Sequence record: NC_047769.1
DNA length: 44,559 nucleotides
Reading direction: 5' to 3' (one strand)
From: Escherichia phage AAPEc6
In this document: piece by piece, positions 35,920 through 43,990 of the stretch
Layout of the letters: every line of letters starts with the position of its first letter
Position numbering within the stretch: position 1 is the first letter of the stretch
The notes under the pieces: model-generated
Databases searched by the model: none
What the model was told of the DNA's origin: nothing
Seen by the model: only the letters and a program-made list of their open reading frames with translations
Translations under genes and position numbers: made by a program

Positions 35920-37804
35920 AGAATCACAGGCAGAGGCATTAAAGCGGTGGGAAAACCTTAAAGAACTACAAGACACTTTTAAGTATACAGCGGAAGGTTT
36001 GCTTCTCTTTGCAGATACAGTTATTCATAACTTAATTGCAGGCAACCCTCATCTGATTCGTATGCAGGCGGATATCTTGAAGTTCCTATTTTACGGACAC
36101 AAGTACCGCCTCATCGAAGCGCCTCGTGGTATCGCTAAGACAACACTATCAGCAATCTATACGGTATTCCGTATTATTCATGAACCGCATAAGCGTATCA
36201 TGGTTGTGTCCCAAAACGCCAAGCGAGCAGAGGAAATCGCAGGTTGGGTAGTTAAAATCTTCCGTGGCTTAGACTTTCTTGAGTTTATGCTGCCGGATAT
36301 CTACGCTGGGGACCGTGCATCCGTTAAGGCGTTTGAGATTCATTACACCCTACGTGGTAGTGATAAGTCTCCTTCTGTATCCTGTTACTCAATCGAAGCA
36401 GGTATGCAGGGCGCTCGTGCTGATATTATTCTAGCGGATGACGTAGAGTCGATGCAGAATGCTCGTACGGCAGCGGGCCGTGCCTTGCTTGAGGAGCTGA
36501 CTAAGGAGTTTGAATCTATCAACCAGTTTGGGGATATCATTTACCTTGGTACACCTCAGAACGTAAACTCTATCTACAACAACCTACCTGCTCGTGGTTA
36601 CTCTGTTCGTATCTGGACTGCGCGTTACCCTTCAGTAGAGCAAGAGCAATGTTATGGCGACTTCCTTGCACCTATGATTGTTCAAGATATGAAGGACAAC
36701 CCAGCACTTCGCTCAGGGTACGGGTTGGATGGTAATAGTGGTGCACCTTGTGCCCCTGAAATGTATGATGATGAAGTCCTGATTGAGAAGGAAATCTCTC
36801 AGGGTGCTGCTAAGTTCCAGCTTCAGTTCATGCTTAACACTCGCATGATGGATGCTGACAGATACCCATTACGCCTGAACAATCTAATCTTCACCTCGTT
36901 TGGTACAGAGGAAGTCCCTGTGATGCCTACGTGGAGTAATGATTCCATAAACATCATTGGTGATGCACCTAAGTATGGTAACAAGCCTACGGATTTCATG
37001 TACAGACCTGTAGCTCGCCCATATGAATGGGGTGCTGTCTCCCGCAAGATTATGTATATTGACCCTGCGGGTGGTGGTAAGAATGGAGATGAGACGGGTG
37101 TAGCCATCGTATTCCTGCACGGCACATTCATTTATGTGTATCAGTGCTTTGGTGTACCTGGCGGATACCGAGAGTCGTCCCTGAATCGCATTGTGCAGGC
37201 CGCAAAGCAGGCGGGTGTTAAAGAGGTATTCATTGAGAAGAACTTTGGTCATGGCGCGTTTGAGGCGGTAATTAAGCCGTACTTTGAACGAGAGTGGCCT
37301 GTAACTCTGGAAGAGGATTACGCCACCGGACAGAAAGAGTTGCGTATCATTGAGACGCTGGAGCCGCTCATGGCAGCCCATAGGCTTATCTTCAATGCAG
37401 AGATGGTGAAGTCAGACTTTGAGTCGGTACAGCACTATCCGCTTGAACTACGCATGTCCTACAGTCTTTTCAATCAAATGTCGAACATAACGATTGAGAA
37501 GAACAGCCTCCGGCATGATGACCGCCTAGACGCCCTGTATGGCGCTATACGGCAATTAACTTCTCAGATAGACTATGACGAGGTTACACGGATTAATCGC
37601 CTCAGAGCGCAGGAGATGCGCGATTACATCCATGCTATGAACACACCTCATCTACGCAGGGCAATGCTATATGGAGATTACGGTACTGAGCGAAGAGTGA
37701 CCAACACTTCCGTAGCGATGCAGCAGCGAGTTTACGGGCAGAACTACCGAAATAAATCGGCAAGCAGAAATACACTTTCTGCAAGGATTTCAAGGACTTA
37801 TTAA
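35906..37804 (+). CDS. Terminase large subunit (gp19-like)
   Basis: ATPase and nuclease segments (APRGIAKTT, ADIILADDVE, IYLGTPQN); ATG at 35906 after AAGGAG (ORF track 35867). Confidence 0.93.
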   Translation: MAKARESQAEALKRWENLKELQDTFKYTAEGLLLFADTVIHNLIAGNPHLIRMQADILKFLFYGHKYRLIEAPRGIAKTTLSAIYTVFRIIHEPHKRIMVVSQNAKRAEEIAGWVVKIFRGLDFLEFMLPDIYAGDRASVKAFEIHYTLRGSDKSPSVSCYSIEAGMQGARADIILADDVESMQNARTAAGRALLEELTKEFESINQFGDIIYLGTPQNVNSIYNNLPARGYSVRIWTARYPSVEQEQCYGDFLAPMIVQDMKDNPALRSGYGLDGNSGAPCAPEMYDDEVLIEKEISQGAAKFQLQFMLNTRMMDADRYPLRLNNLIFTSFGTEEVPVMPTWSNDSINIIGDAPKYGNKPTDFMYRPVARPYEWGAVSRKIMYIDPAGGGKNGDETGVAIVFLHGTFIYVYQCFGVPGGYRESSLNRIVQAAKQAGVKEVFIEKNFGHGAFEAVIKPYFEREWPVTLEEDYATGQKELRIIETLEPLMAAHRLIFNAEMVKSDFESVQHYPLELRMSYSLFNQMSNITIEKNSLRHDDRLDALYGAIRQLTSQIDYDEVTRINRLRAQEMRDYIHAMNTPHLRRAMLYGDYGTERRVTNTSVAMQQRVYGQNYRNKSASRNTLSARISRTY

Positions 37805-37826
37805 TTACTGGACACTATAGAAGGAA
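37803..37826 (+). promoter_or_regulatory. Phage promoter (AATTACTGGACACTATAGAAGGAA)
   Basis: Near-consensus; overlaps the terminase stop codon. Confidence 0.75.
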
Positions 37827-37839
37827 GGCCCAGATAATA

Positions 37840-37885
37840 AGAGAAATAATAGGTAATATAGGTTAACCTAGGTTATATAGGTATG
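37840..37885 (+). other. AT-rich block of four phased TAGGT(A/T)A repeats; candidate secondary origin or regulatory site
   Basis: ATAGGTAAT, ATAGGTTAA, CTAGGTTAT, ATAGGTATG at about 9-10 bp spacing; followed by hairpin GGGTGTAC-TCCT-GTACACCC (37895-37914). Confidence 0.4.
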
Positions 37886-37960
37886 CCTTAGTATGGGTGT
37901 ACTCCTGTACACCCTATTCCTTACTACCTTACTATATTTACATAATAGGAGAGAGAGACA

Positions 37961-38239
37961 ATGGCTAATGATTATAGTAGTCAACCATTAACAGGTAAGT
38001 CTAAGCGAAAGCAGGTACAACCTGTAAGTGAAGCACTAATGCTTCCGGTAATCTCAAAAGAGGAAGCTAGTAAGAAAATCAATGTTATTAATGATGCCAC
38101 CAAATCAGGTAAACAGAAAGGGGCCATGGTGTGCCTTGAAGTGGAAGATGGTGTATTGAAGATTGCTATCGCGGTTGATGGCAAAGAAGATTCAGAGTGG
38201 AAGTTAGTGACAGTGGAACCCACTGTTACCCCAGCTTAA
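37961..38239 (+). CDS. Small protein, paralog A (92 aa)
   Basis: Shares the core SGKQKGAMV-LE...L-IA-A...W...VTPA with the next ORF. Confidence 0.6.
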   Translation: MANDYSSQPLTGKSKRKQVQPVSEALMLPVISKEEASKKINVINDATKSGKQKGAMVCLEVEDGVLKIAIAVDGKEDSEWKLVTVEPTVTPA

Positions 38240-38256
38240 GAGAAGGAGGAGGTTAC

Positions 38257-38550
38257 ATGGCTAAATATGGTACTACAGGTTCTGTTACTGGTCAGGCTTT
38301 TCGAGTAAAAGCAGTACAAACTATTGCAACGGCAATCCCGATGCCTGTTGTTAAAGAAGCAGACCTTAAGAGTAAAGATCACCCTATCAACATCAAACAC
38401 CTGTCAGGTAAGCAGAAAGGTGCAATGGTTGCTCTTGAGAAAGATGACACAACCTTACATATTGCTGTTGCACGTGGTAGTGAACCCACAGACTCTTGGG
38501 ATGTAACTGGTATGGAATCGCTCGCTGTCACTCCAGCAGGTGGAGAATAA
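38257..38550 (+). CDS. Small protein, paralog B (97 aa)
   Basis: AAGGAGGAGG RBS; paralogous to 37961..38239. Confidence 0.6.
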   Translation: MAKYGTTGSVTGQAFRVKAVQTIATAIPMPVVKEADLKSKDHPINIKHLSGKQKGAMVALEKDDTTLHIAVARGSEPTDSWDVTGMESLAVTPAGGE

Positions 38551-38894
38551 TGCTTAACAAATACTTCAAGCGTAAAGAGTTCGCTTGCCGTTGTGGGTGC
38601 GGTACATCCACTGTTGATGCTGAATTACTACAGGTAGTCACAGATGTGCGTGAGCACTTTGGTTCTCCTGTAGTTATCACTTCGGGGCATCGCTGTGCTA
38701 AGCACAATGCCAATGTAGGTGGCGCTAAGAACTCCATGCATCTTACTGGTAAGGCTGCTGACATTAAAGTGTCTGGCATATTACCTTCTGAAGTGCATAA
38801 GTATCTTACTAGCAAATACCAAGGCAAGTATGGTATCGGTAAGTATAACTCCTTCACTCACATCGATGTACGGGATGGTTGTGCGCGATGGTAA
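38550..38894 (+). CDS. Endolysin, peptidase M15-type zinc peptidoglycan hydrolase
   Basis: Motifs SGHRCAKHN, NSMHLTGKAADI, HID (H-x-D / H zinc-ligand pattern); TAATG overlap with the upstream ORF. Confidence 0.75.
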   Translation: MLNKYFKRKEFACRCGCGTSTVDAELLQVVTDVREHFGSPVVITSGHRCAKHNANVGGAKNSMHLTGKAADIKVSGILPSEVHKYLTSKYQGKYGIGKYNSFTHIDVRDGCARW

Positions 38895-39002: not shown

Positions 39003-39152
39003 ATGAAAAAGCTGTTTAAGTCTAAGAAGGTTGTAGGTGCACTGGTTGCACTTGTTATTGCTCTTGTTTCTGTAGGTCTTGGTGTAGACCTTGGCTCTGG
39101 CACGGAATCCTCTGTGACAGATGTGGTCTGCCAAGTGATTACCTGTGAATAA
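39003..39152 (+). CDS. Small membrane protein (49 aa, basic N-terminus plus TM segment)
   Basis: GGGAGA RBS; MKKLFKSKKVVGALVALVIALVSVGLG. Confidence 0.4.
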   Translation: MKKLFKSKKVVGALVALVIALVSVGLGVDLGSGTESSVTDVVCQVITCE

Positions 39153-39366
39153 GTTTCTAGAAGTGCTGGCAGGTCTTATTGGCCTGCTTGTCTCTGCTAA
39201 GAAGAAACAAGAAGAGAAGGAGGCACAAAGTGAAGCGAATCATGTTAGTGACAATCCTGCTGATTGGTTCGCTGACCACTTCCGGGTGTCAGCAGGCGTT
39301 ACCAGAGAAAGCAATGGTGAAACCTCTGAGGCCGACGCTGACGGAAGTTTACGAGGTAGACGATAA
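39145..39366 (+). CDS. Candidate i-spanin (N-terminal TM then charged periplasmic domain); GTG start
   Basis: ORF track; TM segment FLEVLAGLIGLLVSA; overlaps the o-spanin candidate in another frame. Confidence 0.4.
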   Translation: MNKFLEVLAGLIGLLVSAKKKQEEKEAQSEANHVSDNPADWFADHFRVSAGVTRESNGETSEADADGSLRGRR

Positions 39367-39439
39367 GGTCTGCTTTAGTAAGCCTGACGCTACAAAATTA
39401 GGTTTGTATATTCTTTCGCTAGAACGCGGATATAATTAA
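39242..39439 (+). CDS. Candidate o-spanin lipoprotein (Rz1-like)
   Basis: MLVTILLIGSLTTSGC: signal peptide with lipobox-like TSGC; overlapping architecture. Confidence 0.45.
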   Translation: MLVTILLIGSLTTSGCQQALPEKAMVKPLRPTLTEVYEVDDKVCFSKPDATKLGLYILSLERGYN

Positions 39440-39468: not shown

Positions 39469-39492
39469 ATTTACTGGACACTATAGAAGAGG
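39469..39492 (+). promoter_or_regulatory. Phage promoter (ATTTACTGGACACTATAGAAGAGG) driving the tailspike genes
   Basis: Exact consensus; preceded by GTCTTACGAT half-site relic. Confidence 0.85.
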
Positions 39493-39570
39493 TAAGATAG
39501 CGCCGTTCTTTTGAGCGGCCTATTACTAGCCAATCTTCATAGGGAGGGTTGGAAAGTAATAGGAGATAGC

Positions 39571-41469
39571 ATGGCTAAATTAACCAAACCTAATACTGAA
39601 GGAATCTTGCATAAAGGACAATCTTTGTATGAGTACCTTGATGAGAGAGTTTTAACATCAAAGCCGTTTGGTGCTGCAGGTGACGCCACTACTGATGATA
39701 CGGAGGTTATAGCTGCTTCATTAAACTCTCAGAAAGCTGTCACAGTCTCAGATGGTGTATTCTCTAGCTCTGGTATTAATAGTAATTACTGTAACTTAGA
39801 CGGTAGGGGTAGTGGCGTGCTAAGTCACCGTTCCAGTACAGGTAACTACTTAGTATTTAACAATCTACGTGCAGGTCGTTTAAGTAATATTACGGTAGAA
39901 AGTAATAAGGCGACTGATACAACTCAGGGACAGCAGGTGTCTCTTGCTGGTGGAAGTGATGTTACTGTAAGTGACGTTAACTTCTCAAACGTTAAAGGTA
40001 CTGGTTTCAGTTTAATCGCATACCCTAATGATGCGCCACCTGATGGACTTATGATTAAAGGCATTCGAGGTAGCTATTCAGGCTATGCTACTAATAAGGC
40101 AGCAGGATGCGTACTTGCTGACTCCTCAGTTAACTCCCTCATAGATAACGTCATTGCTAAGAACTACCCTCAGTTCGGAGCAGTAGAGTTGAAAGGTACA
40201 GCCAGTTACAACATAGTCAGTAATGTTATAGGGGCAGATTGCCAGCATGTAACTTACAACGGCACTGAAGGGCCAATAGCTCCTTCTAATAACCTTATCA
40301 AGGGGATGATGGCTAATAACCCTAAGTATGCAGCGGTTGTTGCAGGCAAAGGAAGTACGAACTTAATCTCAGACGTGCTCGTAGATTACTCAACTTCTGA
40401 TGCTAGGCAGGCTCATGGTGTTACAGTAGAGGGTTCTGATAACGTCATAAATAATGTACTTATGTCAGGATGTGATGGTACTAACTCTTTAGGGCAAGGG
40501 CAGACTGCTACAATTGCACGCTTTATAGGTACAGCTAATAACAACTATGCGTCTGTATTTCCTAGCTACAGTGCTACAGGTGTTATTACTTTCGAATCCG
40601 GCTCTACCCGTAACTTCGTAGAGGTAAAGCACCCTGGCAGGAGAAACGACCTTCTCAGTTCTGCTAGTACTATTGACGGTGCAGCTACTATTGACGGCAC
40701 TAGTAATAGTAACGTAGTGCACGCACCTGCCTTAGGGCAGTACATAGGTAGTATGTCAGGTAGGTTCGAATGGCGGATTAAGTCCATGTCACTCCCTTCA
40801 GGCGTTCTTACTTCTGCTGATAAGTACAGAATGCTTGGAGATGGTGCTGTGTCATTAGCTGTAGGTGGGGGCACTTCTTCTCAAGTTCGCCTATTTACTT
40901 CTGATGGTACTTCTCGGGCAGTGTCCCTCACCAACGGTAACGTGCGTCTTTCTACCAGTAGCACAGGCTTTTTGCAGTTAGGTGCTGATGCAATGACCCC
41001 AGACAGTACTGGTACATACGCATTAGGTTCCGCCAGCCGAGCATGGTCTGGCGGTTTTACTCAAGCAGCATTCACTGTTACCTCAGATGCTCGGTGTAAA
41101 ACAGAACCTCTTACTATCTCAGATGCCTTACTGGATGCTTGGTCTGAAGTTGACTTTGTGCAGTTTCAGTATTTGGATCGTGTTGAGGAGAAGGGTGCAG
41201 ACTCAGCTAGATGGCACTTCGGTATCATCGCTCAGCGAGCTAAGGAGGCTTTCGAACGTCACGGTATAGATGCACATCGCTATGGCTTCTTGTGCTTCGA
41301 CAGTTGGGATGATGTATACGAGGAAGATGCCAATGGCTCTCGTAAACTGATTACACCAGCAGGTTCCCGCTACGGTATTCGTTACGAGGAAGTACTGATA
41401 TTAGAGGCTGCGTTGATGCGGCGGACTATTAAGCGTATGCAGGAAGCACTAGCTTCCCTGCCTAAGTAA
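39571..41469 (+). CDS. Tailspike capsule depolymerase, beta-helix lyase-like, with C-terminal intramolecular chaperone domain
   Basis: 632 aa from the ATG at 39571 (AGGAGA RBS); repetitive N/V/G/S beta-helix-like coils; C-terminal TSDARCK...HFGIIAQ shared with the next tailspike. Confidence 0.8.
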   Translation: MAKLTKPNTEGILHKGQSLYEYLDERVLTSKPFGAAGDATTDDTEVIAASLNSQKAVTVSDGVFSSSGINSNYCNLDGRGSGVLSHRSSTGNYLVFNNLRAGRLSNITVESNKATDTTQGQQVSLAGGSDVTVSDVNFSNVKGTGFSLIAYPNDAPPDGLMIKGIRGSYSGYATNKAAGCVLADSSVNSLIDNVIAKNYPQFGAVELKGTASYNIVSNVIGADCQHVTYNGTEGPIAPSNNLIKGMMANNPKYAAVVAGKGSTNLISDVLVDYSTSDARQAHGVTVEGSDNVINNVLMSGCDGTNSLGQGQTATIARFIGTANNNYASVFPSYSATGVITFESGSTRNFVEVKHPGRRNDLLSSASTIDGAATIDGTSNSNVVHAPALGQYIGSMSGRFEWRIKSMSLPSGVLTSADKYRMLGDGAVSLAVGGGTSSQVRLFTSDGTSRAVSLTNGNVRLSTSSTGFLQLGADAMTPDSTGTYALGSASRAWSGGFTQAAFTVTSDARCKTEPLTISDALLDAWSEVDFVQFQYLDRVEEKGADSARWHFGIIAQRAKEAFERHGIDAHRYGFLCFDSWDDVYEEDANGSRKLITPAGSRYGIRYEEVLILEAALMRRTIKRMQEALASLPK

Positions 41470-41554
41470 GCAACAGGCAGTGCGTAAGCACTGCTTTTAG
41501 CGCAACTTTTCTTAAAGGTTATCATGATGGTAGCCTTTCAGAAAAGGAGGTTAC

Positions 41555-43990
41555 ATGATTCAAAGACTAGGTTCTTCATTAGTTAAATTCAAGAGTAAAA
41601 TAGCAGGTGCAATCTGGCGTAACTTGGATGACAAGCTCACCGAGGTTGTATCGCTTAAAGATTTTGGAGCCAAAGGTGATGGTAAGACAAACGACCAAGA
41701 TGCAGTAAATGCAGCGATGGCTTCAGGTAAGAGAATTGACGGTGCTGGTGCTACTTACAAAGTATCATCTTTACCTGACATGGAGCGATTCTATAACACC
41801 CGCTTCGTATGGGAACGTTTAGCAGGTCAACCTCTTTACTATGTGAGTAAAGGTTTTATCAATGGTGAACTATATAAAATCACGGATAACCCTTATTACA
41901 ATGCTTGGCCTCAAGACAAAGCGTTTGTATATGAGAACGTGATATATGCACCTTACATGGGTAGTGACCGTCATGGTGTTAGTCGTCTGCATGTATCATG
42001 GGTTAAGTCTGGTGACGATGGTCAAACATGGTCTACTCCAGAGTGGTTAACTGATCTGCATCCAGATTACCCTACAGTGAACTATCATTGTATGAGTATG
42101 GGTGTATGTCGCAACCGCCTGTTTGCCATGATTGAAACACGTACTTTAGCCAAGAACGCACTAACCAATTGTGCATTGTGGGATCGCCCTATGTCTCGTA
42201 GTCTGCATCTTACTGGTGGTATCACTAAGGCTGCAAATCAGAGATATGCAACAATCCATGTACCTGATCACGGACTCTTCGTGGGCGATTTTGTTAACTT
42301 CTCTAATTCTGCGGTAACAGGTGTATCAGGTGATATGACTGTTGCAACGGTAATAGATAAGGACAACTTCACGGTTCTTACACCTAACCAGCAGACTTCA
42401 GATTTGAATAACGATGGAAAGAGTTGGCACATGGGTACTTCTTTCCATAAGTCTCCATGGCGTAAGACAGATCTTGGTCTAATCCCTCGTGTCACAGAGG
42501 TGCATAGCTTTGCTACTATTGATAACAATGGCTTTGTTATGGGCTATCATCAAGGTGATGTAGCTCCACGAGAAGTTGGTCTTTTCTACTTCCCTGATGC
42601 TTTCAATAGCCCATCTAATTATGTTCGTCGTCAGATACCATCTGAGTATGAACCAGATGCGGCAGAGCCATGCATCAAGTACTATGACGGTGTATTATAC
42701 CTTATCACTCGTGGCACTCGTGGTGACAGACTTGGAAGCTCTTTGCATCGTAGCAGAGATATAGGTCAGACTTGGGAGTCACTGAGATTTCCACATAATG
42801 TTCATCATACTACCTTACCTTTTGCTAAAGTAGGAGATGACCTTATTATGTTTGGTTCAGAACGTGCAGAAAATGAATGGGAAGCAGGTGCACCAGATGA
42901 TCGTTACAAGGCATCTTATCCTCGTACCTTCTATGCACGATTGAATGTAAACAATTGGAATGCAGATGATATTGAATGGGTTAACATCACAGACCAAATC
43001 TATCAAGGTGACATTGTGAACTCTAGTGTAGGTGTAGGTTCTGTTGTAGTTAAAGACAGCTACATTTACTATATCTTTGGTGGAGAAAACCATTTCAACC
43101 CAATGACTTATGGTGACAACAAAGATAGAGACCCATTTAAAGGTCATGGACACCCTACTGATATATACTGCTATAAGATGCAGATTGCAAATGACAATCG
43201 TGTATCTCGTAAGTTTACATATGGTGCAACTCCGGGTCAAGCTATACCTACTTTCATGGGTACTGATGGAATACGAAATATCCCTGCACCTTTGTATTTC
43301 TCAGATAACATTGTTACAGAGGATACTAAAGTTGGACACTTAACACTTAAAGCAAGCACAAGTTCCAATATACGATCTGAAGTGCAGATGGAAGGTGAAT
43401 ATGGCTTTATTGGCAAGTCTGTTCCAAAGGACAACCCAACTGGTCAACGTTTGATTATTTGTGGTGGAGAAGAGACTTCGTCCTCTTCAGGTGCACAGAT
43501 AACTTTGCACGGCTCTAATTCAAGTAATGCTAAGCGTATCACTTATAACGGAAATGAGCACCTATTCCAAGGTGCACCAATCATGCCTGCTGTAGATAAC
43601 CAGTTTGCTGCTGGTGGACCCAGTAACCGATTCACGACCATCTACCTAGGTAGTGACCCTGTTACAACTTCAGATGCTGACCACAAGTACGGTATCTCTA
43701 GTATTAATACCAAGGTGTTAAAGGCTTGGAGCAGGGTTGGTTTTAAACAGTATGGTTTGAATAGTGAAGCAGAGAGGAACCTTGATAGCATACACTTCGG
43801 TGTCTTGGCTCAGGATATTGTAGCTGCTTTTGAAGCTGAAGGGTTAGATGCCATTAAGTATGGAATTGTGTCCTTCGAAGAAGGTAGGTACGGTGTGAGG
43901 TATAGTGAAGTTCTAACCCTAGAGGCTGCTTATACTCGTTATCGTTTAGACAAGTTAGAGGAGATGTATGCCACTAATAGAATCAGTTAA
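41555..43990 (+). CDS. Tailspike endosialidase (endo-N-acetylneuraminidase) with C-terminal intramolecular chaperone domain
   Basis: 811 aa; two Asp-box motifs (SGDDGQTW, SRDIGQTW); C-terminal TSDADHK...HFGVLAQ; AAGGAGG RBS. Confidence 0.88.
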   Translation: MIQRLGSSLVKFKSKIAGAIWRNLDDKLTEVVSLKDFGAKGDGKTNDQDAVNAAMASGKRIDGAGATYKVSSLPDMERFYNTRFVWERLAGQPLYYVSKGFINGELYKITDNPYYNAWPQDKAFVYENVIYAPYMGSDRHGVSRLHVSWVKSGDDGQTWSTPEWLTDLHPDYPTVNYHCMSMGVCRNRLFAMIETRTLAKNALTNCALWDRPMSRSLHLTGGITKAANQRYATIHVPDHGLFVGDFVNFSNSAVTGVSGDMTVATVIDKDNFTVLTPNQQTSDLNNDGKSWHMGTSFHKSPWRKTDLGLIPRVTEVHSFATIDNNGFVMGYHQGDVAPREVGLFYFPDAFNSPSNYVRRQIPSEYEPDAAEPCIKYYDGVLYLITRGTRGDRLGSSLHRSRDIGQTWESLRFPHNVHHTTLPFAKVGDDLIMFGSERAENEWEAGAPDDRYKASYPRTFYARLNVNNWNADDIEWVNITDQIYQGDIVNSSVGVGSVVVKDSYIYYIFGGENHFNPMTYGDNKDRDPFKGHGHPTDIYCYKMQIANDNRVSRKFTYGATPGQAIPTFMGTDGIRNIPAPLYFSDNIVTEDTKVGHLTLKASTSSNIRSEVQMEGEYGFIGKSVPKDNPTGQRLIICGGEETSSSSGAQITLHGSNSSNAKRITYNGNEHLFQGAPIMPAVDNQFAAGGPSNRFTTIYLGSDPVTTSDADHKYGISSINTKVLKAWSRVGFKQYGLNSEAERNLDSIHFGVLAQDIVAAFEAEGLDAIKYGIVSFEEGRYGVRYSEVLTLEAAYTRYRLDKLEEMYATNRIS

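Follow-up and report, generated by a model that had tools for sequence, protein, structure and literature searches.

Paralogous gp41 and gp42 of Escherichia phage AAPEc6 as probable bare members of a virion-surface anchor family

Decoration proteins of the lambda gpD and phage L Dec type are small (about 10-14 kDa) and trimeric, they are added after packaging, and their N-terminal arm becomes ordered on the capsid. This type is the working model that we propose for gp41 and gp42, two small proteins encoded by Escherichia phage AAPEc6. A second described system is that of the Pectobacterium phage phiM1, an Autographiviridae podophage with two paralogous and separately expressed decoration proteins, alpha-claw (gp44) and alpha-paw (gp43) (PMC11440229). 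The two have a capsid-binding motif in common, one is bare and the other has an added arm, and they are partitioned among the quasi-equivalent 2-fold sites of the capsid (PMC11440229). The gp41/gp42 family follows the same organisational logic of bare and extended members. However, the phiM1 proteins are helix-turn-helix bundles that sit as dimers on 2-fold axes, whereas the domain studied here is predicted to be beta/alpha and is probably trimeric, and there is no sequence relation between the two.

The third comparison is with T5 pb10 and T4 Hoc, in which an anchor carries an Ig-like display domain. This is also the design of gp47 of phage Kp7, a relative of the AAPEc6 proteins, and the Ig domain of pb10 is homologous to that of gp47 (E=6e-17). 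As a monomer, pb10 binds the hexamer centres (PMC5292684). Unlike pb10, the AAPEc6 proteins contain no Ig-like display domain in a Pfam search, and hhalign with the family profile reveals no relation to full-length T5-like pb10 or to the Ig-bearing protein PP2_044 of phage PP2.

AAPEc6 is a K1-5-like Vectrevirus, and the region of interest is 95-97% identical to that of K1-5-like Vectrevirus phages, the pair corresponding to K1-5 genes 41 and 42 (gp41 and gp42). The window, by which we mean the whole 44,559-nt stretch of AAPEc6 DNA that was analysed, contains both open reading frames, 92 and 97 aa long, as an earlier note on this DNA had given them:

37961..38239, + strand: gp41-type paralog of 92 aa (AAPEc6 ANT40807.1), open reading frame confirmed by exact-sequence look-up; a single 'bare' copy of the anchor domain
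38257..38550, + strand: gp42-type paralog of 97 aa (AAPEc6 ANT40806.1), open reading frame with an exact-sequence match; the second 'bare' copy of the anchor domain

The two proteins align over their full length in BLASTP with 36/94 identities (38%, E=1e-16). Their Smith-Waterman score of 139 stands far above that of 2000 shuffles, the control by which the earlier note's claim could have failed, which score 27+-5 with a maximum of 59 (z=22), and a six-frame HMM scan of the window finds exactly two copies of the domain, with E=4e-41 for gp41 and E=7e-44 for gp42. The earlier note had read the pair as a local duplication followed by divergence. The kind of event stands, while a recent date does not: a distance tree of the family in AAPEc6, SP6, POP72 and Kp7 separates the gp41-type and the gp42-type proteins into two clades, and therefore the duplication is older than the split of these four phages. 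By sequence comparison, gp41 and gp42 are thus real, ancient paralogs.

Residues T11, G12, P30, N45, S50, G51, K52, Q53, A56, A72 and W81 (gp42 numbering) are invariant in both paralog types, with T92 and P93, close to the C-terminal end, almost invariant as well. Both genes are under purifying selection, since their dN/dS values against Vectrevirus G3A1 are 0.26 and 0.30. We also note a 95-aa metagenomic homolog (P0202), the N-terminal half of which is gp41-type and the C-terminal half gp42-type, apparently the product of recombination between the paralogs.

The expression signals of the pair are as follows:

37803..37827, + strand: SP6-type phage RNA-polymerase (late) promoter for gp41, gp42 and the lysis genes, with the exact core GACACTATAGAAG at 37811-37823
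37895..37914, + strand: 5' UTR hairpin GGGTGTAC-TCCT-GTACACCC, found in a terminator-like scan
37948..37952, + strand: Shine-Dalgarno AGGAG of the gp41-like gene, read from the sequence, 8 nt before the ATG at 37961
38243..38252, + strand: strong Shine-Dalgarno AAGGAGGAGG of the gp42-like gene, read from the sequence, 4 nt before the ATG

The promoter that the earlier note had placed at 37803 is thus confirmed as an exact SP6-type core, and its unusually strong ribosome-binding site is the one ahead of gp42. This site also marks the start of gp42 as the ATG at 38257, and the upstream GTG at 38197 is not the start. The window has 13 matches to the SP6-type promoter (8 of them exact), against 1.25 expected by chance, and the one before gp41 is conserved in K1-5, SP6, POP72 and phiEa100. 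Given the promoter core at 37811-37823, gp41 and gp42 therefore head a late transcription unit; the next promoter of this type lies at 39477, ahead of the tailspike gene. The exact late-type promoter and the strong Shine-Dalgarno sequences suggest that the two proteins would be made late and at a high level, together with the structural genes.

The gap between promoter and gp41 has features of its own. At 37848-37914 a TAGGT(A/T) motif is repeated several times ahead of the hairpin, and in phiEa100 a related unit forms a longer tandem array. The position of the hairpin is kept in Kp7 and POP72 with different stems (GGGTACTC/GAGTACCC in Kp7, GGGAC/GTCCC in POP72), and this conservation suggests an RNA element of the 5' UTR, which might serve as a processing site, a stabiliser or a weak terminator.

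No homology had been recognised in the earlier note. Both proteins, however, match PHROG 2725 (gp41 over residues 1-92 with E=4.7e-38, gp42 over residues 1-95 with E=4.7e-45), and the family profile, searched against 1.84 billion representative proteins, gives 242 hits. Neither protein matches a family of Pfam or NCBIfam, thiolase domains included, and in PDB sequence searches with both proteins, the family profile and Kp7 gp46/gp47 the anchor domain gives chance-level matches only. With gp42 as tblastn query, 188 phage records match at 1-3 places per record, and the hosts are Escherichia, Klebsiella, Salmonella, Proteus, Erwinia, Pectobacterium, Vibrio, Pseudomonas and Aeromonas. The genes occupy the slot directly after the large terminase and before the lysis genes in 8/8 genomes inspected (K1-5, Kp7, SP6, POP72, phiEa100, Vc1, G3A1 and Reminis). 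Counted with the family HMM on six-frame translations, the copies per genome are:

AAPEc6 (the window): 2 copies, both bare
K1-5: 2 copies, both bare
Kp7: 3 copies, an Ig domain on the third
SP6: 3 copies, the third (42.3) truncated
POP72: 3 copies, all bare
G3A1 (same genus as AAPEc6): 3 copies, the third of 229 aa with a C-terminal extension and absent from AAPEc6

The third member of Escherichia phage vB_EcoP-G3A1 (L015 2790-3479) lies between gp42 and the endolysin gene. It is missing from both AAPEc6 and K1-5, and thus the copy number of the array varies within one genus.

Two genomes deserve mention. In Pectobacterium phage PP2 (Melnykvirinae) the slot between large terminase and endolysin encodes an unrelated protein of 194 aa that ends in an Ig domain (L006 2189-2773), and Autographiviridae seem to use this slot generally for surface accessory proteins. 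Vibrio phage Vc1 (NC_047746; L014) is filed under Drexlerviridae despite its SP6-like late gene order, which runs from holin through small and large terminase and a short and a long family member to a pectate-lyase-type tailspike; its taxonomy line looks wrong.

The evidence for a place on the virion comes from phage Kp7. Three Kp7 genes between terminase and endolysin encode gp45, gp46 and gp47 (GenBank ON148527). AAPEc6 gp41 and Kp7 gp45 share 46% identity (E=2e-22), AAPEc6 gp42 and Kp7 gp46 share 48% (E=8e-19), and gp47 contains a third paralog as its N-terminal half. The proteins share the slot and the motifs TG, N, SGKQ.GA, W and TPA with the AAPEc6 pair; the difference is the third paralog with its C-terminal Ig domain, which AAPEc6 does not have. 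According to a preprint, mass spectrometry on gel bands of purified virions identified gp45, gp46 and gp47, which it calls 'minor capsid proteins' (bioRxiv 10.1101/2024.05.19.594906). Its authors are the group behind the Kp7 structures, and the GenBank record ON148527 carries the same annotation. A literature search found no virion proteomics for AAPEc6, K1-5, K1E, SP6, PP99 or phiA318. We consider with good confidence that gp41 and gp42 are accessory proteins associated with the virion.

The domains that other members of the family carry point in the same direction. In many relatives the last paralog bears a distal Ig, knob or fibre domain. In Kp7 gp47 the Ig domain that resembles T5 pb10 makes up the C-terminal half. 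Two other members (P0280 and P0345) join the family domain to a C-terminal Sf6-type tail-needle knob (Pfam PF16532; E=1.7e-30 and 5e-43, respectively), and further ones end in Ala-rich tails, which are possibly fibre-like, or in other domains. With its conserved N-terminal module and its exchangeable distal parts, the family thus looks like an anchor for exposed accessories on the particle. Since both AAPEc6 copies are bare, with no distal Ig, knob or fibre domain, a stabilising or structural role is more likely for them than an adhesive one.

Many of the 242 profile hits are of another build: they are 255-300 aa long and contain three tandem copies of the domain in one fused gene. Where context is available, this gene, found in uncultured T7-type phages, follows immediately after a T7-type large terminase, which is the slot of the separate paralogs in cultured phages; several of the fused proteins lie on contigs too short for gene context, and a search of viral contigs for related loci with one fused protein found nothing. 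AlphaFold2 (AF2) models one fused protein from 37 homologs with pLDDT 89.9 and pTM 0.86, whereas the single gp42 domain reaches a moderate pLDDT of 66.7. This difference suggests a defined packing of the three domains, and judging by pTM the fused form may be a compact pseudo-trimer. The Sf6 knob is itself a trimer. Fused forms, genomes with three paralogs and the fusion to a trimeric knob together point to a functional unit of three domains, which we regard as probable. The two copies of AAPEc6, rather than three, fit a heterotrimer less neatly.

The N-terminal segment of about 30 residues (TG..R.K...P.V) is conserved, with T11, G12, R16 and K18 invariant or nearly so, and yet it is modelled by AF2 with a pLDDT of about 45-50. 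Such a combination looks like that of a segment which becomes ordered only on its binding partner, and we compare it to the arm of lambda gpD, which orders only on the capsid. The predicted fold shows no similarity to the beta-tulip of lambda gpD-like decoration proteins or to the OB-fold of phage L Dec.

We suggest that gp41 and gp42 are bare members of a virion-surface anchor domain and that they probably act as trimeric capsid decoration, a reading to which we give reasonable credence. The two are old paralogs of a domain of ~90 aa that, on this reading, anchors accessories to the outside of SP6/K1-5-type particles. They would be made late and in quantity from the phage-polymerase promoter and the strong ribosome-binding sites, and would be added to the particle after DNA packaging. 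Three domains would then form a unit, either as mixed gp41/gp42 trimers or as separate homotrimers, in which the compact beta/alpha core builds the trimer and the N-terminal arm folds onto the surface of the partner. This surface would most likely belong to the shell of the T=7 capsid, with binding at positions of 3-fold type, and gp41 and gp42 would then be decoration or cement proteins. For the capsid as the specific location, which relies on the annotation of the Kp7 depositors and one preprint on orthologs of 46-48% identity, we lean slightly towards yes.

A bolder version is that the family represents an undescribed decoration fold working as hetero- or pseudo-trimers, with each paralog or fused domain specialised for one of the non-equivalent quasi-3-fold positions of the T=7 capsid and the third exchangeable for Ig, knob or fibre modules; we hold it tentatively and consider it rather unlikely in full. 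We also speculate that the invariant Asn and Lys flanking a short helix (N45 and K52 of gp42) could make a conserved contact with the shell, or even a covalent link.

A site on the tail or neck is the only serious rival to the capsid. The proteins would then be virion proteins of the tail, neck or tailspike-adaptor region, acting as small collar or auxiliary anchor modules, which we consider unlikely. This site remains a rival because Ralstonia phage Reminis encodes its extended, knob-bearing member further on, directly after the tailspike gene, and because Ig domains of the gp47 type, which occur on Hoc-like proteins, are found on tail tubes and neck whiskers as well. The Sf6-type knob is, moreover, a domain of the tail needle, and homologs of gp47 are labelled 'tail protein' in several databases. 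Against these indications stands the annotation of the orthologs as minor capsid proteins by the very group that solved the Kp7 structures, and hhalign with the family profile shows no relation to the N-termini of the two AAPEc6 tailspikes or to the tail adaptor. The PDB bears on both sites, as none of its chains matches gp45-47, the Kp7 capsid (7y3t) and tail (7y22) entries included. The lack of a match in the tail entry speaks against a tail location; at the same time, icosahedrally ordered capsid proteins might be expected to be modelled in the Kp7 entry, and the fact that gp45-47 are not might count against a capsid site.

Virion decoration was one of three roles that the earlier note had proposed, and it is the one favoured by the Kp7 orthologs in virions and by the paralogs with Ig and knob domains. 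The other two, regulation of lysis and anti-defence, draw their support from gene position and are unlikely. For lysis the neighbouring genes have to be considered:

38550..38894, + strand: M15 peptidase endolysin (Peptidase_M15_3, E=6.7e-34)
39003..39152: holin, downstream of the endolysin in the late transcription unit of gp41 and gp42

The unit continues from endolysin and holin into overlapping spanin genes. The stop codon of gp42 overlaps the ATG of the endolysin gene (TAATG, 38548-38552), an arrangement by which translation of the endolysin may be coupled to that of the strongly translated gp42. The spanin region at 39145-39439 consists of a 73-aa open reading frame (PHROG 9219) overlapped by one in another frame, residues 21-86 of which match an Rz-like spanin. 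By eye, the translation of the first has a hydrophobic N-terminus and that of the second a lipobox-like LTTSGC, so that an i-spanin and an o-spanin with overlapping genes seem to be encoded here.

A non-structural role in the regulation of lysis, such as an effect of these late proteins on endolysin or holin, would fit the promoter shared with endolysin, holin and spanins, the start of the endolysin gene within the gp42 stop codon, and the place of the family between large terminase and lysis genes in the eight genomes inspected. Nevertheless, this position is not specific to lysis, because the transcription unit runs on towards the tailspike genes. In addition, the orthologs are reported in purified virions, fusions to Ig, knob and Ala-rich parts are typical of exposed virion proteins and not of cytoplasmic regulators, and the proteins have no transmembrane segment, signal peptide or likeness to known lysis regulators. 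We therefore regard a role in lysis as improbable. Beyond the spanin genes, 39511-43990 holds two tailspike-sized genes of 652 aa and 811 aa, the first preceded by its own promoter at 39477, and this layout matches the annotated dual tailspikes of K1-5 (gp46 and gp47).

Anti-defence or host-takeover proteins, as gp41 and gp42 might be taken for by their resemblance to many anti-defence genes (small, fast-evolving, duplicated and unannotated), would hardly be expected in a late structural and lysis operon instead of the early region. The family is also conserved with fixed synteny in the inspected SP6-like phages across seven host genera (Escherichia, Klebsiella, Salmonella, Erwinia, Pectobacterium, Vibrio and Ralstonia) and matches phages of Pseudomonas, Aeromonas and Proteus, while its orthologs are reported in virions and fusions to display domains exist, so that this role is very improbable. 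The identity as acetyl-CoA acetyltransferases (thiolases), which comes from the name of PHROG 2725 in PHROGs and RefSeq and for which the propagated product name speaks, has virtually no chance of being right: thiolases have ~390 aa, with an N- and a C-terminal domain and a catalytic Cys/His/Cys, whereas these proteins have fewer than 100 (92 and 97), and with no thiolase domain, no Pfam or NCBIfam family and no PDB sequence match the name is refuted as spurious.

The reading of gp41 and gp42 as virion-surface proteins thus corrects an annotation, for the false enzymatic name is still spreading through RefSeq. The 188 records matched by the family include phages of the K1-5/K1E and SP6 types and those of Klebsiella, Proteus, Erwinia and Vibrio, and in the literature found K1-5/K1E-type and Klebsiella phages have been studied for therapy. 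Decoration and accessory proteins are known as a class, and one genome record already lists the orthologs as minor capsid proteins; how far the family extends, its architecture of three domains, split or fused, and its lack of a structural match appear to be undescribed in the literature searched. We do not see here a new class of biology. The main practical value lies in fixing a widespread misannotation and in the compact anchor domain itself, which has no match among solved structures and naturally tolerates C-terminal Ig, knob and other extensions. The occurrence of the same domain as two to three separate paralogs or as one three-domain gene yields a testable prediction on how quasi-equivalent capsid sites are recognised. 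If the virion-surface reading is true, the anchor domain would be a candidate display scaffold on phages of the T7 supergroup, as pb10 is for T5.
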